DNA from: a virus
Lineage: Duplodnaviria > Heunggongvirae > Uroviricota > Caudoviricetes
Strand: one strand, 5' to 3'
Length of the DNA stretch: 18,076 nucleotides
IMG/VR virus record: IMGVR_UViG_2731957842_000001
Span: 1-18,076 of that record
The translations under genes were made by a program, and so were the position numbers. Positions 2,811 to 17,197 of the stretch are shown piece after piece. Every line of letters begins with the position of its first letter. Positions within the stretch are counted from its first letter, which is position 1. The notes under the pieces are model-generated. The model was not told the origin of the DNA and did not search any database. It saw nothing but the letters and a program-made list of their open reading frames with translations.

Positions 2811-3404
2811 CTATTTGTCCCGGTTGGCTAAGGGATGACACAATTTATTCTTTGTCGCTGATGAGGGAAATTTTTTATAGAGCGTGGACAGGCCAATATC
2901 AAAAATCAGCGCCACACGTTGACGAGATTCCCCCGCAGCCAGCAACCGTCCGACCTGCTCCCACTCACTCGCGGTGAGTTTCGGACGCCTGCCACCAATA
3001 CGACCTTTAGCTCTGGCCGCTTCCAGTCCGGCGCGTGTCCGCTCGACAATGAGTTCTCGCTCCATTTCAGCCAGGGCACCCATCACATGAAAGAAAAAAC
3101 GCCCCATCGGCGTGCTGGTATCAATAGCATCCGTCAGACTGCGAAAATTAACGCCGCGTTCGCGCAGTTCCTCAACCAGAATGACCAGATGCCGCATACT
3201 ACGCCCCAGCCTGTCCAGCTTCCAGACTACCAGAGTGTCACCTGCTGATAATGTTCTGAGCAGTTTTTTCAGTCCCGGTCGGTCGGACTTCGTGCCGCTG
3301 ATTTTATCCTCAAAAATCCGCTCGCATCCTGCGCACTCCAGCGCGTTACGCTGCAATTCCGTGTTCTGGTCATTTGTTGACACGCGTACATAGCCAATAA
3401 GCAT
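2811..3404 (-). CDS. Site-specific DNA invertase, serine recombinase of the Hin/Gin/Pin/Cin (Din) family
   Basis: MLIGYVRVSTNDQNTELQRNAL...LVVWKLDRLGRSMRHL...FRSLTDAIDTSTPMGRFFFHVMGALAEMERELIVERT...GRIGGRRPKLT is near-identical in pattern to Gin/Pin, with the catalytic Ser in RVST and a C-terminal HTH. I take the second ATG (3404) as the start because AGGGGG sits 6 nt upstream of it; the track ORF starts 2 codons earlier at 3410. Confidence 0.9.
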   Translation of the reverse strand: MLIGYVRVSTNDQNTELQRNALECAGCERIFEDKISGTKSDRPGLKKLLRTLSAGDTLVVWKLDRLGRSMRHLVILVEELRERGVNFRSLTDAIDTSTPMGRFFFHVMGALAEMERELIVERTRAGLEAARAKGRIGGRRPKLTASEWEQVGRLLAAGESRQRVALIFDIGLSTLYKKFPSSATKNKLCHPLANRDK

Positions 3405-3459
3405 GAGCATCCCCCTGAATAAAAACCGGAGATGATGCCTGTTGCACGTAATCTCTGCA

Positions 3460-3485
3460 TTTTCTTAAACGTTGGTTTGGGAGAA
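3460..3485. other. Candidate gix/hix/pix-like inversion crossover site (degenerate 12-2-12 inverted repeat)
   Basis: TTTTCTTAAACG-TT-GGTTTGGGAGAA; the right half matches the recalled gix right half GGTTTTGGATAA at 10/12, the left half only about 7/12. It lies 56 bp upstream of the invertase start and at the 5' end of the tail-fibre fragment, where Din crossover sites are found. Confidence 0.35.
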
Positions 3486-3486
3486 G

Positions 3487-3690
3487 GTTCGGCATTACCC
3501 GTTGGCGTGCCTGTTCCGTGGCCTTCCGCCACTCCGCCAACAGGCTGGCTGAAATGCAACGGTGCCGCTTTTTCTGCTGAAGAATACCCGGAACTGGCAA
3601 AGGCTTATCCGACAAATAAATTGCCTGATTTACGTGGTGAGTTTATTCGTGGCTGGGATGACGGGCGTGGAGTGGATAGCCGGTCTTCAA
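3487..3690 (+). pseudogene. Remnant of an alternative tail-fibre C-terminal (variable) segment, truncated
   Basis: Plus-strand frame encodes ...PVGVPVPWPSATPPTGWLKCNGAAFSAEEYPELAKAYPTNKLPDLRGEFIRGWDDGRGVD, the conserved motif I recall just distal to the crossover site in Mu S/S', P1 S and e14 tail fibres. No N-terminal constant part precedes it and it runs straight into antisense gene R; the track ORF 3432..4043 is a chimera. Confidence 0.6.
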
Positions 3691-3701
3691 AACGCTTAAA
3701 C

Positions 3702-4169
3702 TCATTCATCCCACTTGCTCACCAGTTCGCCATTGATATACAGCTCCACCGGGCGGGTGACCGGCTCCGGCGGCGGGGGTTCCGGGATATTCTTCACATG
3801 CAGTGCGCCGTCCACCTCGCTGACCAGCGTGCGCTCGGTCAGCATCAGACTGATGCTGATATCAAAGCTGCTGTCATTGTTGATGTCTGCATAAAACGTG
3901 AAGCCCTTTTTCTGACCTTCGTCAGTGGTCATGATGTCGGGCTGATTTTCCCGCAGCCACGCCAGCACCGGCACGATGAGCAGGTCAAAATCACCGGTAA
4001 AGTCGGTCACAATGACATTGAGCGTGTAACGCTTTTCGAATGACAGCGACGTCGCCAGTGTGGAGGCAATACTCCCGTTATCCACGAATATCCGCAGCAT
4101 CTCGGGGCTGGTTTTCAGCACCGTGACGGCATCAGTCAGTGCCCTGCGCAGGCTGTCGGGTTTGAGCAT
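3702..4169 (-). CDS. R: Tail completion protein R
   Basis: 155-aa ORF MLKPDSLRRALTDAVTVLKTSPEMLRIF...; same length as P2 gpR and in the expected position after the lysis genes. Confidence 0.8.
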   Translation of the reverse strand: MLKPDSLRRALTDAVTVLKTSPEMLRIFVDNGSIASTLATSLSFEKRYTLNVIVTDFTGDFDLLIVPVLAWLRENQPDIMTTDEGQKKGFTFYADINNDSSFDISISLMLTERTLVSEVDGALHVKNIPEPPPPEPVTRPVELYINGELVSKWDE

Positions 4170-9624: not shown

Positions 9625-11397
9625 ATGACCATCACCACAGACACCACTCTTTTACACGACCCGCGTCGTCAGGCGGCGCTGCTGTACTGGCAGGGGTTTT
9701 CCGTGCCGCAGATTGCCGCCATGTTGCAGATGAAACGCCCGACGGTGCAGAGCTGGAAACAGCGCGACGGCTGGGACAGCGTTGCCCCCATCAGCCGTGT
9801 CGAAATGAGCCTGGAAGCGCGGCTGACCCAGCTCATCATCAAACCGCAGAAAACCGGCGGTGACTTCAAGGAAATTGACCTGCTGGGACGCCAGATTGAA
9901 CGACTGGCGCGGGTCAACCGCTACAGTCAGACCGGCAACGAGGCAGACCTTAATCCGAACGTCGCTAACCGCAACAAAGGCGGGCGTCGCAAACCGAAAA
10001 AGAATTTTTTCAGTGACGAAGCCATCGAAAAGCTGGAGCAGATTTTCTTTGAGCAGTCTTTCGACTATCAGTTGCACTGGTATCGCGCCGGGCTTGAGCA
10101 CCGCATCCGCGATATACTGAAATCCCGCCAGATTGGCGCAACGTTTTATTTTTCCCGCGAGGCGCTGCTGCGCGCCCTGAAAACCGGCCATAACCAGATT
10201 TTTCTGTCGGCCAGTAAAACGCAGGCGTATGTGTTCCGCGAATACATCATCGCCTTTGCCCGTCTGGTTGACGTTGACCTGACCGGTGACCCGATTGTCC
10301 TGGGCAATAACGGCGCAAAACTAATTTTTCTCGGCACCAACTCCAACACCGCACAGAGCCATAACGGCGACCTGTACGTCGACGAGATTTTCTGGATCCC
10401 GAATTTTCAGGTACTGCGTAAGGTGGCATCAGGTATGGCCTCACAGAGTCACCTGCGTTCGACCTATTTCTCCACCCCGTCCACGCTGGCGCACGACGCC
10501 TACCCGTTCTGGTCAGGTGAACTGTTCAACCGGGGACGCGCCAGCGCCGCCGAACGCGTGGAAATCGACGTCAGTCATAACGCCCTTGCCGGTGGGCTTC
10601 TCTGTGCGGACGGCCAGTGGCGGCAGATTGTCACCATTGAGGACGCCCTGAAAGGTGGCTGCACGCTGTTCGACATTGAGCAGCTCAAACGTGAAAACAG
10701 CGCCGACGATTTTAAAAACCTGTTCATGTGTGAATTTGTTGACGACAAGGCGTCGGTGTTCCCGTTCGAGGAGCTGCAACGCTGCATGGTCGACACGCTG
10801 GAAGAATGGGAAGACTATGCGCCGTTTGCCGCCAATCCGTTCGGCTCCCGCCCGGTATGGATTGGTTACGACCCGTCACACCGTGGCGACAGCGCCGGAT
10901 GCGTGGTGCTGGCACCGCCGGTGGTGGCCGGTGGCAAATTCAGAATACTTGAGCGTCACCAGTGGAAAGGCATGGACTTTGCCACCCAGGCGGAATCCAT
11001 CCGCAAACTCACCGAAAAATATAACGTTGAATACATCGGGATTGATGCCACCGGCCTCGGTGTCGGCGTGTTCCAGCTCGTGCGCTCGTTCTATCCCGCC
11101 GCGCGCGATATCCGCTACACGCCGGAAATGAAAACCGCAATGGTGCTCAAGGCAAAAGACGTTATCCGCCGTGGCTGTCTGGAATATGACGTCAGCGCCA
11201 CCGACATCACCAGCTCGTTCATGGCTATCCGCAAGACCATGACCAGCAGCGGACGCAGCGCCACCTATGAGGCCAGCCGCAGCGAGGAAGCCAGCCACGC
11301 CGACCTCGCCTGGGCAACCATGCACGCCCTGTTAAATGAGCCACTCACCGCCGGTATCAGCACTCCGCTGACATCCACCATTCTGGAGTTTTACTGA
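9625..11397 (+). CDS. P: Terminase large (ATPase) subunit
   Basis: 590-aa product from the ATG at 9625, with GAGG 6 nt upstream; the stop overlaps the Q start (TGATG). Length and sequence match recalled P2 gpP. Confidence 0.9.
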   Translation: MTITTDTTLLHDPRRQAALLYWQGFSVPQIAAMLQMKRPTVQSWKQRDGWDSVAPISRVEMSLEARLTQLIIKPQKTGGDFKEIDLLGRQIERLARVNRYSQTGNEADLNPNVANRNKGGRRKPKKNFFSDEAIEKLEQIFFEQSFDYQLHWYRAGLEHRIRDILKSRQIGATFYFSREALLRALKTGHNQIFLSASKTQAYVFREYIIAFARLVDVDLTGDPIVLGNNGAKLIFLGTNSNTAQSHNGDLYVDEIFWIPNFQVLRKVASGMASQSHLRSTYFSTPSTLAHDAYPFWSGELFNRGRASAAERVEIDVSHNALAGGLLCADGQWRQIVTIEDALKGGCTLFDIEQLKRENSADDFKNLFMCEFVDDKASVFPFEELQRCMVDTLEEWEDYAPFAANPFGSRPVWIGYDPSHRGDSAGCVVLAPPVVAGGKFRILERHQWKGMDFATQAESIRKLTEKYNVEYIGIDATGLGVGVFQLVRSFYPAARDIRYTPEMKTAMVLKAKDVIRRGCLEYDVSATDITSSFMAIRKTMTSSGRSATYEASRSEEASHADLAWATMHALLNEPLTAGISTPLTSTILEFY

Positions 11398-12430
11398 TGA
11401 GCAAGAAAAAAGGGAAAACACCGCGACCTGCGGCAAAAACAATCACCGCCAGCGCCCCGAAAATGGAAGCATTCACCTTTGGCGAGCCGGTGCCGGTACT
11501 CGACCGCCGTGACATTCTGGATTACGTCGAGTGCATCAGTAACGGCAGATGGTATGAGCCGCCGGTCAGCTTTACCGGTCTGGCAAAAAGCCTGCGTGCT
11601 GCCGTGCATCACAGCTCACCGATTTACGTCAAACGTAATATTCTGGCTTCAACGTTTATCCCGCACCCGTGGCTTTCCCAGCAGGATTTCAGCCGCTTTG
11701 TGCTGGATTTTCTGGTGTTCGGTAATGCGTTTCTGGAAAAGCGTTACAGCACCACCGGTAAGGTCATCAGACTGGAAACCTCACCGGCCAAATATACCCG
11801 TCGTGGCGTGGAGGAGGATGTTTACTGGTGGGTGCCGTCCTTCAACGAGCCGACAGCCTTCGCGCCCGGCTCCGTGTTTCATCTGCTGGAGCCTGATATT
11901 AATCAGGAGCTGTACGGCCTGCCGGAATATCTCAGCGCCCTTAACTCTGCCTGGCTGAATGAGTCGGCCACGCTGTTCCGCCGCAAGTATTACGAAAACG
12001 GCGCACATGCCGGATACATCATGTACGTCACCGATGCCGTGCAGGACCGCAACGATATCGAAATGCTTCGCGAAAACATGGTTAAGTCGAAAGGCCGCAA
12101 CAACTTTAAAAACCTGTTTCTCTATGCCCCGCAGGGGAAAGCTGACGGCATTAAAATTATCCCGCTCAGTGAAGTGGCAACGAAGGACGATTTTTTAATA
12201 TCAAAAAAGCCAGTGCCGCAGACCTGCTGGATGCGCACCGCATCCCCTTTCAGTTGATGGGCGGCAAGCCGGAGAACGTCGGGTCGTTGGGTGATATTGA
12301 GAAAGTGGCAAAGGTCTTTGTCCGCAATGAGCTTATCCCGTTACAGGACAGGATCCGCGAGATAAACGGCTGGCTCGGTCAGGAGGTCATCCGCTTTAAA
12401 AACTACTCACTGGACACTGACAACGGCTGA
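11397..12430 (+). CDS. Q: Portal protein, reading frame interrupted by an apparent 1-nt deletion in a T-run at 12191-12196
   Basis: The frame from ATG 11397 reads 266 aa of portal sequence, then ...KDDFLISKKPVPQTCWMRTASPFS to a stop at 12257. The -1 frame from 12197 reads NIKKASAADLLDAHRIPFQLMGGKPENVGSLGDIEKVAKVFVRNELIPLQDRIREINGWLGQEVIRFKNYSLDTDNG to a stop at 12428-12430, just before a terminator. Joined with a T7 run, the product is about 344 aa, as recalled for P2 gpQ. Confidence 0.8.
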
Positions 12431-12599: not shown

Positions 12600-12618
12600 G
12601 TGCTTTCCCCGCCTCGCC
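12600..12618. other. cos cohesive-end sequence of the P2/186 type
   Basis: GTGCTTTCCCCGCCTCGCC is the reverse complement of GGCGAGGCGGGGAAAGCAC, which I recall as the 19-nt P2 cohesive end. It sits just distal to Q, where cos lies in P2. Confidence 0.7.
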
Positions 12619-12742
12619 CGCCCGCTTCATGGGGCGGTTTTAATGCAAATGCATTCTGGTTCCATGCATTTTGATGGCAATAGTATACGCACAAAATTTA
12701 TCGGACATAACGTATGCATTTTCATGCACCGTCATGCCCCCC

Positions 12743-12830
12743 TTGACAATCCCATGATTTTTTAGAGCAAGCTTGCATTCCATACTGTCAAAACACATTA
12801 TATACTTGGGCTTTTTATACAAGGACTTAA
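12743..12830 (+). promoter_or_regulatory. Candidate promoter/RBS region for the ATPase-partner operon
   Basis: TTGACA at 12743-12748 and TATACT at 12801-12806, but their spacing is not canonical; AAGGA Shine-Dalgarno at 12821-12825, 7 nt before the ATG. The exact promoter is unresolved. Confidence 0.3.
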
Positions 12831-12832
12831 AC

Positions 12833-14531
12833 ATGTTAACAAAATTCTCAGGAAAAAATTACAAAGCATTTAAGGATTTCTCGTTCGAGATTAAGCCTAT
12901 AACGGTGTTATTAGGAGCAAATAGCTGTGGAAAAAGCGCACTTATCAATTCACTTTTGATGTTTTCACAAACAGCAGAAACAATAAACATTTCCGAATCA
13001 GCACTAAGATTAAATGGAAATAAGGTTGGCATGGGGGAATCTCTGAATATCATCAGAGAAAAAACCCAAAAACACCTTAAGTTTTTCATTTGAAATATCA
13101 AATCAACAATCCTTGCGATACGACATTCACAAAAGCAAGCGCGATTTTATTGACTTCTATTTTTCACTTGCCAGATATTTGGGACAAGTATTAAAAAGTG
13201 CGGCATCAACAACACCCAGCAGTGATTTGATGAACAATAGTTTTAATGACACATTAAAAACTATTGATAAAATCGAATCAAACTATATGTTTAGAGACAC
13301 TTACAACTCTGCACAACTTAAAGCCATTTCTGATGGTGTTTGCGAATTATTATCAAAATACAGACAACTACCTGAGGATGTTGCAAAAAAATCCCGTCCA
13401 CATCTCGATCGACTAGCAGAGTTTGTTAATATTGTTTCTTTCGAAAACATTCAAAGCAGCTTAATGTCATTAGCATCTCTTAGTGCAAAAAAAATATCCC
13501 CCAAACGAATTGATTATGATTTTTGCTTTGATAAAAAATCAAACCAACTAAAAATAACCGGGTGCGCTTTTCATAATCACTTAGGCGAATGCATCACCAG
13601 CTTGGGTATATCTAAAGGGAAATTCTTTTTACGCTCTGACGTTATTAAAAGAACTCACTTAAGCAAATCCCGAGAAGAGATATCGAAGCTAATCAATTTC
13701 AATTCACTATCCCTTATAGATGAAATTCAAAACGTTAATTTCATTGACAAACACATTGTGTCCCTTGACCCATTCGCTAGTTTATTCTGCAACTATCTTG
13801 AGAAGCTAACAAAAGCATTTATCTCTGAGTTTAATGGTGTAAAAATAAATCATGTCAGCCCATTAAGGGCATTCCCTCAACGCTACTATCTTTTAGACAA
13901 GTCTATACAGCATACTTTTCTTAATGTTCTGGAAGGTAATGAACTGGCTGAGGTGTTAAAGAAAAATCCAGAAATAAAAAATAAAATTAATATTTTACTG
14001 GCAAAGTTCAATCTTGAAGTAGATGTCGTCATGGTTAATGACATCATTCATAAGATCAACATCACCCAAGATTCCATCTCTCTAGAGTTAACAGATGTAG
14101 GTTTTGGCATATCTCAGGTTTTACCTATTTTGGTTCAAGCCTATTTGTCCCCTAAAAATTCCATCACTATTATAGAACAACCAGAAATTCACTTACACCC
14201 CAAAATGCAAGCATGGCTCACTGACGCTTTAATTCACATTGCATTAAAAGAGAAAAAAAGATTTATTATTGAAACTCACAGTGACGCTCTAATCAGAAGA
14301 ATCAGATTGCGTATTGTTGATACTAAATCGAGCCTTACACCAAATGATGTAATGCTTTGCAATCTTGAAAGAAAATCTGAAGATAATGTCACTAGTTTAA
14401 AAGTGATTCCTATTACCGAGGATGGAGATATAACTTGGCCTGCGGATTTTTTAGACATTGAAATTCAAGACACACTTCAAATCCAGAATTTTAAAGTTAA
14501 AAAACATCTTAAAAGTAAAGGTCTGTTATAA
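12833..14531 (+). CDS. SMC/OLD-type ABC ATPase (AAA_15/AAA_21-like), frame interrupted in an A-run at 13059-13064; ~565 aa if bridged
   Basis: N-terminus MLTKFSGKNYKAFKDFSFEIKPITVLLGANSCGKSALINSL carries a Walker A (GANSCGKS). This frame stops at 13093, while a second frame is open from 13047 and continues ...KPKNTLSFSFEISNQ... to 14531. The C-terminal region has a signature-like GFGISQ, Walker B ITIIEQPE and H-loop HLHP, with a long helical insert between. The region is ~30% GC. Its stop is immediately followed by the next gene's ATG. Confidence 0.75.
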
Positions 14532-15533
14532 ATGTTTTACACTCATTGTATAAGCCCTGAATTCATGGGGCTTCACATCAAAAATATGGACACTTTTATT
14601 TCGATTTTTATGGGTGTTTTAATGAATCCGAAGAACCAGATCGTTTTAGATGAGGCAGGAATAATTGAACAACAATATTTATTAAGTCTTAATAACGACA
14701 AATCAGCTTTTTTGCTCTACCAAACTTGGGAGAAAGCCATAAAATCAGACAGTTGCCAAGGTAAACTATTACTTTCTTCTCCCAATATATCATCTTCAAT
14801 ACATGATTATGTAGTTTCAGCTATTTCATGTGCTATAACCACAAACGACAAAACAATATTAACTGCTGATAACAATTTGTACAGCGCGGCTTTACCTGTT
14901 TTATCCAGACAAAGAATTCACTTACTGGGAATAAGTCATCTAACCCCTCAATCATCAGCAAGCATTATAGGTAAACATATGTCTTTTACAAAACTTGATT
15001 ATGATATTGCCTGGTCTCTAGAGAGATTGGTTCGGCTTCATCGAAAAGGGAACACAGAGGATGACTTAAATGACTTACTCCGTGAATACTTGCTTGCGAA
15101 GGAATACGAGATAAAAGACCAAACTCGTGAAGGCATATCTACAAGTGGAAAGAGCGCCGGAGAACTTGATATTATTGTTGAGCACAACTCAAACATGTTT
15201 GCAATACTAGAAGCAATGAAGCTTAGTCAGATAAACAAGGAGTATATCACCATTCATTACAAAAAAATGCTTGTCAATTACAACCCTCTGGACGTAAAGA
15301 GATTATTCCTCATTACTTATTACGATGGAAAAAAATTCGATACTTGGTGGGATAACTACGTTGAATTTGTAAAAAGTATAGACTACACCACATTAAACCC
15401 TGAAGTCGAAAACACAACATTTGTTAACACAGAAAAGATTAACACGAACTTTGGGAATGTAAAAAAAATGCTACACCACGGTCTGGCTAATGGTGAACAA
15501 TTTTCCGTCATACATTATGCAGTAAAACTGTAA
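14532..15533 (+). CDS. Partner protein of the ATPase, function unknown; candidate effector
   Basis: 333-aa ORF starting 1 nt after the ATPase stop (TAA-ATG), with the same low GC. No family recognised by eye. Weak motifs: VLDEAG plus a downstream DYD (possible Toprim/DUF4435-like) and GELDIIVEH...ILEAMK (possible restriction-endonuclease-like). Followed by a strong terminator. Confidence 0.65.
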   Translation: MFYTHCISPEFMGLHIKNMDTFISIFMGVLMNPKNQIVLDEAGIIEQQYLLSLNNDKSAFLLYQTWEKAIKSDSCQGKLLLSSPNISSSIHDYVVSAISCAITTNDKTILTADNNLYSAALPVLSRQRIHLLGISHLTPQSSASIIGKHMSFTKLDYDIAWSLERLVRLHRKGNTEDDLNDLLREYLLAKEYEIKDQTREGISTSGKSAGELDIIVEHNSNMFAILEAMKLSQINKEYITIHYKKMLVNYNPLDVKRLFLITYYDGKKFDTWWDNYVEFVKSIDYTTLNPEVENTTFVNTEKINTNFGNVKKMLHHGLANGEQFSVIHYAVKL

Positions 15534-15540
15534 CTCTTAT

Positions 15541-15569
15541 AACGTGGTGATTGATATCACCACGTTTTT
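15541..15569 (+). terminator. Rho-independent terminator after the two-gene module
   Basis: Perfect 10-bp stem AACGTGGTGA / TCACCACGTT with a 6-nt loop, followed by TTTTT, 8 nt after the partner gene stop. Confidence 0.65.
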
Positions 15570-15834
15570 ATCCTAAAACAAAATAACAGAAGTTTAGTTA
15601 AAACCGCCTTTCAATTCTTTTAGATATATGGTCTACATACCAGAATTATTATTTCAGGTAATCGTCCGCATGATGAGTTCATTGCTATCCATTGCTCTAT
15701 AGTTTCGGCTATCAACATATCGAACAACCTGACCTGTACTCACCAATTTGCATAAAACTGTCACACCCCAAGGTTTTTACCAACACTGAAAATAACACCA
15801 ATCAGATAATTATCTATTTAGATTAACTTAGTTA

Positions 15835-16323
15835 TCATAAATTCCATTCGGATACTGTTGAATAACCAAGCCACTCATCAGCGACCGGATACGTGAATTT
15901 TTTCCCGTCATAATTTACGGTCGCGCCACGCGCCAGCGCCTCAAGCTCCCATCGCTGCGGCCTGATACCGTTCTGAGCAAGGTCAACGCGGATACGGGTG
16001 ATTTGCATTCGTTCCGACCGGGTCAGTCTGGCCGACGGTGCAATTTCATATGGTTTTAACGGGCTTCCGTTTCTTTGCTGACGGTTTTGCGTTCTCCGAC
16101 CGTGTTTTAATGCGCCCCTGAGCGCCCTCACAACCTCCGGGTCATTCCATTCTATAACCCCGTCATCAACCAGATTAAGCACTGCTGCAGCGTGCTCAGA
16201 CGGTGTGGGAGCCTGTAATGAAGTATCACCACCGGTGAGCTTTCCACAGTTATTGACAGGACTCCGAGGCGCGGCGATGCCGCTTTTTAAAGTCAAAGGC
16301 TCAACGACCGGCACTTTCGGCAC
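15835..16323 (-). CDS. Hypothetical protein, likely last gene of the phage early-region operon
   Basis: 162-aa ORF at phage-like GC, transcribed toward cos as P2 early genes are. The start is uncertain: GTG at 16323 with no convincing ATG or Shine-Dalgarno. No family recognised. Confidence 0.45.
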   Translation of the reverse strand: MPKVPVVEPLTLKSGIAAPRSPVNNCGKLTGGDTSLQAPTPSEHAAAVLNLVDDGVIEWNDPEVVRALRGALKHGRRTQNRQQRNGSPLKPYEIAPSARLTRSERMQITRIRVDLAQNGIRPQRWELEALARGATVNYDGKKFTYPVADEWLGYSTVSEWNL

Positions 16324-16425
16324 AATGCGCCAGTCCGTGGTTCTGGTGATATGAATATGACGCGCGCCGAGATGCGGCGCGTAATTCAGCCTGTTGTTCC
16401 TGAATAAAATCTACGTTGTCCGGCA

Positions 16426-16716
16426 TTACCAGTTCCTTTTGTCGTTCAGTTTTTTAAATTCATCAGCGCAATAGCTGGCGATTTCTGTCGTTAATTTCGT
16501 CAGTTCATCCACGGAGGAAATTTGCTTGTGAAATACAGCGCGTTTAACAAGTAAATTGACCACATCAGACAGGAGATTTAATTTATCCGCATAAATGGCT
16601 ATAGTTGATTCCACCATATCCCCAGTGTTTTTATCGCGTTTAATATCAGCTAGCGACAAATCACCATTTTTCATGACTGAAATCTTCAGCCAGTTATTAA
16701 GCAATATATTTTTCAT
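16426..16716 (-). CDS. Hypothetical protein
   Basis: 96-aa ORF, ~38% GC, overlapping the upstream ORF by 4 nt (operon-like packing). No family recognised. Confidence 0.4.
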   Translation of the reverse strand: MKNILLNNWLKISVMKNGDLSLADIKRDKNTGDMVESTIAIYADKLNLLSDVVNLLVKRAVFHKQISSVDELTKLTTEIASYCADEFKKLNDKRNW

Positions 16717-16964
16717 TCGCCATATGCCCTCTCCGCAGAATCAATCATTTCCCGGCCATTATCGGTAATACAGAAACCTTCTCTTGATTTGGTCACAAGC
16801 CCCCATTTCCCCATTGCTATAAATGCTTTTTCCACACGACTAGGACAGGAGCGGAAGACATCGCTTGAAGGATGTAGTGGAGTCTTGTCATCTAATTTTT
16901 TAAGTAATGAAAGTTGATAATCTGTTAAGCGTTTCCTGAACCATTTTGTATTTGTCATCTCCAA
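16713..16964 (-). CDS. Hypothetical protein
   Basis: 83-aa ORF, tightly packed with its neighbours on the same strand. No family recognised. Confidence 0.4.
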   Translation of the reverse strand: MEMTNTKWFRKRLTDYQLSLLKKLDDKTPLHPSSDVFRSCPSRVEKAFIAMGKWGLVTKSREGFCITDNGREMIDSAERAYGE

Positions 16965-16972
16965 CTTTCCTG

Positions 16973-17197
16973 TTATTTATTGAGTCCTAGATTATGGAAT
17001 TTGGCAGACTCCTGACTGAGCAACTCGACTATCTCCACGCGGGATAACTCCGCCTTTGTGATGTGGCGAATCATGGCGTCAAGATGCGACGAAAAGCGCG
17101 TCGCTGCATCGGCCTGTGCTTCGGTTCTGGCCTGTTGCAGCATTAATGCGTATTTACCGCACTGATTTTCAGAAACTGTATGCATGACTTTCTCCAA
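16973..17197 (-). CDS. Hypothetical small protein
   Basis: 74-aa ORF in the same co-directional cluster. No family recognised. Confidence 0.35.

Follow-up and report, generated by a model that had tools for sequence, protein, structure and literature searches.

The stretch of DNA analysed here, which we call the window, comprises 18,076 nt of a Caudoviricetes virus (IMG/VR record IMGVR_UViG_2731957842_000001) and contains a P2-like prophage, with an AT-rich cargo island between its cos site and the remnant of its replication endonuclease gene, gpA. The island holds two adjacent genes on the plus strand: gene 1, which encodes an ATP-binding cassette (ABC) ATPase, and gene 2, which encodes a 333-aa protein with a nuclease fold. 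We put at about 70% the probability that this island is a mobile two-gene module directed against phages or other mobile elements, in which an OLD-type ABC ATPase works with a nuclease effector, and which looks like the NsnB-NsnC core of the Menshen defence system without its NsnA component. The case is built from the folds and motifs of the two proteins, the strict linkage of their genes, their co-divergence, their residence in a hotspot and their mobility, each of which is documented below.

The ATPase and its partner

Gene 1 runs on the plus strand from an ATG at 12833 to a TAA at 14529-14531, and the ATG of gene 2, at 14532, is the base directly after that stop codon. These are the coordinates, and the tight coupling, given in an earlier note made from the letters of the window alone. 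The same note assigned gene 1 to the SMC/RecF/OLD-type ABC ATPases, with which our searches agree. The best PADLOC model is Menshen NsnB (E-value 3.2e-52), aligned over residues 1-548 of the protein and positions 1-339 of the 345 in the profile; it is followed by PDC-M55A, HEC-03B (residues 407-561, 1.7e-40) and AriA (1.8e-27, full length). In Pfam, gene 1 matches AAA_15 (1e-21) and AAA_21, and ABC_tran remains below threshold. An AlphaFold2 (AF2) model, with a predicted template-modelling score (pTM) of 0.82, is nearest to Rad50, SMC, OLD, PtuA and GajA, the heads of Rad50 and SMC being the top neighbours. We conclude that gene 1 encodes an SMC/Rad50/OLD-type ABC ATPase. A housekeeping ABC transporter ATPase, which the earlier note had named among the matches that would refute its reading, was rejected, since transporter nucleotide-binding domains are not the best similarity.

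Three of the four motifs originally picked out in gene 1 are present as described: the Walker A motif GANSCGKS, the signature-like GFGISQ and the Walker B motif IIEQPE. The fourth, HLHP, had been read as the H-loop, and this part does not stand; the tetrapeptide lies directly after Walker B, in the conserved stretch PEIHLHP. Downstream of that stretch, the histidine of 'ETHSD', His483, is invariant across 65 homologs, and we take it to be the H-loop histidine. Across the same homologs there is an invariant arginine, R346, at the position inferred as the Q-loop, an invariant GxG in the signature G424-F-G426-I-S-Q, and an invariant Walker B sequence, E449-Q450-P-E, which places a glutamine where the catalytic glutamate usually stands. 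Such a family-wide substitution suggests a switch that works by binding ATP and hydrolyses it slowly or not at all. The insert regions of the protein (residues 93-338), on the other hand, are hypervariable, with a column consensus of 0.31-0.42 versus 0.70-0.82 in the nucleotide-binding cores. At its C-terminus gene 1 has a short beta/helix tail; a Toprim domain appears neither in the Pfam matches nor in the AF2 model, which places a terminal helix at residues 542-562. The Pfam family PF12476 (DUF3696) reaches 15.1 bits (E-value 0.029) over residues ~503-542, below its cut-off of 22; it is listed in databases for five homologs of 40-44% identity, and is weak or faint in the two gene tables that were fetched.

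Gene 2 (14532-15533, plus strand) is intact. Pfam, PADLOC and NCBIfam contain nothing that matches it, and the match in PHROGs is no more than marginal, so that the PADLOC and Pfam check proposed in the earlier note places the ATPase and leaves its partner without a match. Scans of its sub-domains at E-values up to 10 returned only marginal matches to DUF6602 and DUF2463, which we did not use, and a search of PDB sequences with the gene 2 profile returned no matches at E-values up to 10. The AF2 model, with a predicted local distance difference test score (pLDDT) of 85, consists of two domains: a PIN-like N-domain (residues ~1-135) and a C-domain (residues ~150-333) with the fold of PD-(D/E)xK nucleases and restriction endonucleases. 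Residues 150-333 resemble the restriction endonucleases OkrAI (8.7), BglII (8.6), BamHI (8.4) and BstYI (8.2), and further structural neighbours are McrC, NucC and HamA. The architecture anticipated from the letters, an ATPase together with a nuclease effector, is thus upheld by the fold of the gene 2 model. These neighbours would favour DNA as the substrate of the partner, with RNA also possible.

Conserved acidic positions in the N-domain number just two, D40 and D92, as opposed to the four acids of the canonical PIN site. The domain carries a conserved Cys-x-x-Pro at the end of its first beta strand, and it resembles the 'inactive PIN' (inPIN) domain of NsnC. In the C-domain, E176, N180, D196, Q197, D213, E227, H242, K245 and Y250 are kept across 146 diverse representatives. 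This pattern of conservation fits a putative PD-(D/E)xK site in which the lysine has shifted onto the helix that comes next.

A word-index search with gene 2 returned 32 clusters, and an exhaustive profile search found the C-domain alone in 1086 representatives at E-values up to 1e-3. In other organisms the C-domain is fused to Roc-COR/LRR GTPases, to nSTAND3 NTPases and to pentapeptide repeats, which is the pattern expected of an effector domain that is shuffled among conflict systems. It appears to be an unnamed effector domain, common to several conflict-system architectures and lacking a Pfam model. Within one set of such proteins (P0056, P0074, P0125 and P0138) the domain stands at the C-terminus of Roc-COR/LRR GTPases and of one nSTAND3 NTPase; in P0056, a tandem Roc-COR protein, it is internal. 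A profile search with the N-domain only returned a single fragment and is uninformative as to whether the PIN-like domain pairs with other effectors. Similarly uninformative is a 308-aa protein consisting of the C-domain only (P0070), whose short contig carries no ATPase.

Linkage, mobility and location of the pair

In each of the 27 loci screened by tblastn, a homolog of gene 1 lies immediately upstream of a homolog of gene 2 on the same strand, and the gene tables of two further loci, from Shewanella and Aeromonas, have the identical adjacency, which brings the total to 29 out of 29. Between the two genes there is either no spacer, a spacer of a few to 66 nt, or an overlap of 8 nt. The proteins co-diverge: the ATPases are 41-93% identical, and the partners 28-89%. 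P2-like hotspots that contain the pair occur in E. coli, Serratia and Providencia and on IMG/VR contigs, and with respect to the phage the pair is found pointing either way. Its other locations are an IncFII plasmid, islands of Klebsiella and Pseudomonas that carry recombinases (integrase or resolvase), and sites between housekeeping genes, where it forms solitary inserts.

Some of these loci have neighbours of their own. In one Pseudomonas locus (L009, 910-4599) the pair lies beside a 1229-aa YobI-ATPase protein, and in another (L017, 2006-3894) beside a cluster in which a gene for a DUF4325 protein and one for a PIN protein accompany an unknown gene, which suggests that both are small defence islands. 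On one E. coli contig (L006, 9283-15386) the pair is followed directly by baseplate J, tail-fibre and Mrr_cat genes, with no portal gene there; this locus looks like a rearranged or chimeric P2-like prophage.

Since gene 1 scores best on NsnB and gene 2 has the architecture of NsnC, one may ask whether the pair derives from a canonical Menshen system of three genes by a recent loss of nsnA. The island offers no room for a third gene: there are only ~190 bp between cos and gene 1, and ~300 bp of non-coding DNA between gene 2 and gpA. Furthermore, the 18 gene tables that came with Pfam annotation already computed show no DUF262 protein among the neighbours of the pair; these tables span Enterobacterales, Pseudomonas, Aeromonas and Shewanella and reach down to 28% identity in the partner. 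Because DUF262 is absent beside the pair across such diverse loci, the two-gene form is old and stable. We regard a recent loss of nsnA as the least probable of the alternatives, with a chance close to negligible.

In the window, a composition profile gives a GC content of 0.52-0.62 across the P2-like structural genes, up to ~12600. The GC content then falls to 0.33-0.38 over ~12640-15830, and recovers to 0.50-0.54 by 15801-16400. The AT-rich island (12640-15834) therefore begins directly after the cos-like sequence and is followed by a recovery in GC, as had been seen by eye; the drop is real, but the level of ~30% given for it was too low, the true low being ~33-35%. The left edge of the island follows a 19-mer at 12600-12618, gtgctttccccgcctcgcc, which was read directly and is the reverse complement of the cohesive-end sequence of P2 cos, GGCGAGGCGGGGAAAGCAC. 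Its right edge is the stop codon of the minus-strand gpA remnant (15835-16323), which consists of the C-terminal 162 codons of that gene. The cos 19-mer sits just downstream of the portal gene, gpQ (11397-12430, plus strand), in agreement with the gpQ-cos-gpA map of P2-like phages (PMC9122126).

The window has terminase and portal genes on one side of the island and the replication endonuclease gene gpA on the other, and the slot is the cos-proximal gpQ-cos-gpA hotspot of P2-like phages. In P2 this gpQ-gpA locus holds old and tin, and its status as a defence hotspot has been validated, with 1,650 different arrangements of genes (PMC9122126); the flanks together with that survey substantiate the earlier proposal that the island occupies the old/tin slot. 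Among 5426 complete E. coli genomes, just 5 have the whole 3.25-kb island, at 99.6-99.8% identity, and in all five it is flanked by the portal and replication endonuclease genes. A second allele, which we call the P2-EC5 type and which is also the type on the rearranged E. coli contig above, is found in 6 of these genomes.

The operon is closed by an element resembling an intrinsic terminator (15541-15571, plus strand), whose hairpin, with a stem of 11 bp, and run of T residues were located at 15541-15566; this element accounts for the strong terminator reported beforehand. A promoter scan gave no match upstream of gene 1, and its overall count was not above that of shuffled sequence; an Rfam scan of the island gave only matches at chance level. 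Between the operon terminator and the gpA stop codon there are ~270 bp of AT-rich DNA (15567-15834) with no open reading frame (ORF) longer than 44 aa and no Rfam match. This DNA is part of the conserved cargo (at least 99.6% identical in the five E. coli genomes). Beyond the gpA remnant, in the early region, a second AT-rich stretch (16400-17000, GC ~0.38) contains a DUF5405 gene (16426-16716) and an 83-aa ORF without a Pfam match (16713-16964).

The location of the pair also bears on whether it serves phage DNA metabolism or host takeover instead of defence, for example in recombination, replication or the degradation of host DNA. A pair that is carried by phages, and whose ATPase has Rad50 and SMC heads as its top structural neighbours, might be expected to play such a role. 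However, gene 1 has no coiled-coil insert and no Mre11-like partner, and the pair sits in a variable accessory slot, outside the conserved P2 core. It occurs in some 11 of the 5426 complete E. coli genomes, as compared with more than 2000 that match the cos-proximal flank, and it also occurs outside phages, between housekeeping genes. We therefore consider a role in phage metabolism very unlikely.

The pair has been catalogued before. The P2-EC5-type allele was deposited as ORF555/ORF333, two hypothetical proteins of phage P2-EC5 (AM157364.1), and it is system #69 of Rousset et al., present in 62 of 18,150 loci (PMC9122126). The window-type ATPase, WP_069914504, appears in the same survey with a hypothetical protein as an 'AAA_15/AAA_21 + hypothetical' arrangement (Rousset et al. 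2022, PMC9122126). The pair is catalogued, yet unnamed, and it plausibly represents a new form, with two genes, of the class of defence systems that combine an ABC ATPase with a nuclease.

State of the copy in the window

The frame break in gene 1 that had been noticed in the letters is real in the window sequence. At 13059-13072 the window reads A6-CCC-A5, whereas intact relatives read A7-CCC-A6, a difference of two 1-nt deletions; the longer form is read in two near-identical E. coli copies, XJ34 and 2014EL-1343-2 (by alignment and by the indels in blastn). Because of this difference a premature TGA arises at 13091-13093. The 5' part of the gene (12833-13093, plus strand), which encodes the N-terminus of the ATPase with its Walker A motif, therefore ends after 86 codons; the intact protein has 566 aa (WP_069914504.1). 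The remainder (13073-14531, plus strand) continues in another frame and encodes the hypervariable inserts, R346, GFGISQ, IIEQPE, H483 and the DUF3696-like tail.

The prophage as a whole has suffered as well. Some 2.2 kb of its relatives are absent from the window, including most of gpA, a DUF5405 gene and traR/dksA; the deletion junction lies at 16381-16384, where the two aligned blocks overlap by 4 bp. In the portal gene, a change from T7 to T6 at 12191 shifts the frame and splits the gene into two ORFs, one of 286 aa and one of 58 aa. The P2 baseplate and tail-fibre genes are missing from the interval that separates the tail sheath gene (1561-2751) from gpR (3702-4169); that interval holds only a serine invertase (Resolvase and HTH_7, 2811-3410) and a tail-collar fragment (3432-4043). 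Lacking genes for the baseplate and the tail fibres, the prophage cannot be viable, and given the large deletions it is truly decaying.

It might be supposed, therefore, that the module in the window is a dead remnant, its ATPase a true pseudogene in a decaying prophage, an explanation that would apply to this locus only. The stop after 86 codons, the frame-shifted portal gene, the ~2.2-kb deletion and the loss of the baseplate and tail-fibre genes all point this way. Nevertheless, the small lesions are of one kind: each of the three small indels that set the window apart from close relatives removes one base from a homopolymer run of 5-7 nt, and no disabling mutation of any other kind is seen. 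Single-base losses in short homopolymer runs are a pattern associated with sequencing or assembly error. In addition, the reading frame of gene 2 is unbroken and its identity to the common allele is 99%, and more than 250 contigs carry the intact 566-aa ATPase. The module is either inactive in the window copy or its sequence contains homopolymer errors, and we give the former, as a true pseudogene, somewhat less than an even chance.

A related split occurs in 2014EL-1343-2, a complete genome, in which the ATPase is annotated as two coding sequences owing to A9 in place of A8 at the equivalent of ~13486 in the window, a different poly-A site from that of the window break. This could reflect recurrent slippage or recurrent sequencing error. 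A weaker and more speculative reading of independent poly-A frameshifts in two E. coli copies of the ATPase is that they may switch a costly system on and off, and would then not be sequencing errors.

These broken copies are also relevant to the idea of a toxin-antitoxin (addiction) function, by which the pair would stabilise the prophage, plasmid or island in which it resides: the nuclease would be a toxin, the ATPase would neutralise it, and the pair would have no part in phage defence. In favour of this, the Pfam entry for AAA_21 bears the description 'putative AbiEii toxin' domain, the elements on which the pair travels are mobile and include a plasmid, and a nuclease standing alone is potentially toxic. 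But the Pfam label is the name of a family rather than a tested function, and 2 of the 6 near-identical E. coli copies (five genomes and the window) combine a disrupted ATPase with an intact nuclease gene, evidently tolerated. Moreover, a simple toxin-antitoxin model was tested and rejected in two validated relatives: in PARIS the deletion of either gene is non-toxic, and in WonAB the toxicity of WonB requires that WonA be present and active. We therefore find an addiction module unlikely, though less so than a role in phage metabolism.

Several further observations weigh against an active defence system, and should be set beside the folds and the location. The ATPase frame is broken in the window, and the prophage there is also without baseplate genes, tail-fibre genes and the greater part of gpA; this locus may be dead. 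The glutamine in Walker B could mean that the ATPase is inactive, and the canonical ExK lysine of the nuclease is out of place: K230 is not invariant, and the conserved K245 lies on the next helix. All database names for the pair are either 'hypothetical protein' or 'AAA family ATPase'; the literature yielded no functional study for its accessions or for ORF555/ORF333; and its sequences are absent from the tables of tested systems in PMC9122126, where the pair is listed only as an untested arrangement. On balance, we infer a defence role from the hotspot location, the mobility of the pair and its validated relatives, HEC-03 and WonAB.

Proposed mechanism and comparison with known systems

By analogy, the products of genes 1 and 2 would form a complex, respond to a trigger, act on a nucleic acid substrate and confer a defence phenotype. 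In the mechanism that we propose, the ATPase would form ATP-bound dimers or tetramers, and its paired C-terminal, DUF3696-like tails would clamp the PIN-like domain of the partner, as in the predicted NsnB4-NsnC2 complex. The PIN-like domain would then serve as an adaptor rather than a catalyst, and its clamping would keep the PD-(D/E)xK domain inactive. The hypervariable inserts of the ATPase may sense a phage product or a nucleic-acid structure, upon which a change of nucleotide state would release or activate the nuclease; this in turn would cut phage or host nucleic acid and block infection, possibly by abortive infection.

A stronger version of the same idea, which we hold only tentatively, is that the NsnB-NsnC pair is an autonomous immune unit, in which an ATPase with a Walker B E-to-Q substitution would sense infection directly through its hypervariable inserts, and a PIN-like adaptor would control an unnamed PD-(D/E)xK effector that ROCO- and STAND-type conflict systems use as well. 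If this is true, then the transducer-effector core of Menshen can work without a ParB-DUF262 sensor, and NsnA is an optional, added sensor rather than a core component, which bears on how Menshen senses infection. It would also define a widespread nuclease domain, with more than 1000 cluster representatives and no Pfam model. The invariant EQ of Walker B offers a natural test of whether ATP binding without hydrolysis suffices to gate effectors. More generally, if the pair is active, it represents a new family in the ABC-ATPase plus nuclease group, found across the phages, plasmids and islands of Gammaproteobacteria, and one that escapes PADLOC v2, Pfam and NCBIfam.

Among known systems, OLD and its relatives provide the simplest comparison. 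In P2 Old the Toprim nuclease is fused to the rest of one polypeptide, whereas here the nuclease is a protein of its own and has a different fold; with no Toprim domain fused to gene 1, membership in the OLD family (P2 Old, GajA) was rejected. PARIS, in which AriA oligomers hold AriB until a trigger arrives, resides in the cos-proximal hotspots of P2 and P4 and likewise has a separate nuclease. Gene 1 matches AriA over its full length, but NsnB scores much higher; and AriB is a DUF4435/Toprim nuclease, as opposed to the PIN-like domain plus restriction-endonuclease fold of gene 2. Membership in PARIS, Septu, Gabija, AbiL and OLD was rejected, on account of the wrong effector and lower ATPase scores.

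WonAB shares the general plan: it is a two-gene operon of prophages and islands, with an OLD-type ABC ATPase (again with an arginine in the Q-loop) and a PD-(D/E)xK nuclease. It is validated as a system of abortive infection through translation arrest, for which both genes are required; its effector docks on the ATPase's dimerised C-terminal extensions, and WonB has been suggested to act on rRNA or tRNA. At the level of sequence, by contrast, gene 1 aligns with an E. coli WonA homolog only in the Walker B region (BLASTP, 32% identity over 71 aa, E-value 4e-4), and the profile of gene 2 reaches an hhalign probability of 1% against an E. coli WonB homolog. The latter, moreover, is a single domain of ~145 aa with no PIN-like domain, and WonA keeps EE in its Walker B motif. 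Since homology was found for neither component, membership in WonAB was rejected.

HEC-03 (Hma-embedded candidate 3) consists of an ABC ATPase and a PIN protein; it is protective, and both genes are required (bioRxiv 10.1101/2024.01.29.577857). Like the present pair it has two genes, an ABC ATPase and a PIN-fold protein, and the HEC-03B model covers the C-terminal part of gene 1 given above. Its partner, however, is described as VapC-like and taken as the effector (bioRxiv 10.1101/2024.01.29.577857), whereas the PIN-like domain of gene 2 lacks the canonical acids and is fused to a domain of restriction-endonuclease fold; gene 2 as a whole is matched by no HEC-03 model.

The Menshen system, NsnA-NsnB-NsnC (Millman 2022; analysed in PMC12065111), comes closest. 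NsnB deviates from other ABC ATPases by a Walker B EN, a Q-loop Q-to-R substitution and a GxG signature, and in its predicted NsnB4-NsnC2 complex the DUF3696 tails clamp the inPIN domain (PMC12065111). Gene 1 not only scores best on the NsnB model, over its full length, but also has all three of these deviations (E449-Q450 in place of EN, R346, and G424-x-G426), and its tail, with a sub-threshold DUF3696 match, may correspond to the C-terminal DUF3696 helix of NsnB. Gene 2 has the layout of NsnC, a PIN-like domain without the canonical acidic set followed by a C-terminal effector of nuclease type. There are two differences. First, the PD-(D/E)xK, restriction-endonuclease fold of gene 2 falls outside the 15 families of NsnC C-domains (among them BECR, Toprim, PLD, DUF4160, PB-UF1 and DUF2103-like; PMC12065111). 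Second, the island consists of two non-overlapping ORFs only, whereas in Menshen the sensor NsnA, with its ParB-DUF262 and ParBDB domains, stands immediately upstream of the ATPase. The Menshen survey was seeded on DUF262 (PMC12065111), and pairs without NsnA could therefore not be found in it. We conclude that the closest relative of the module is the NsnB/NsnC part of Menshen, without NsnA.

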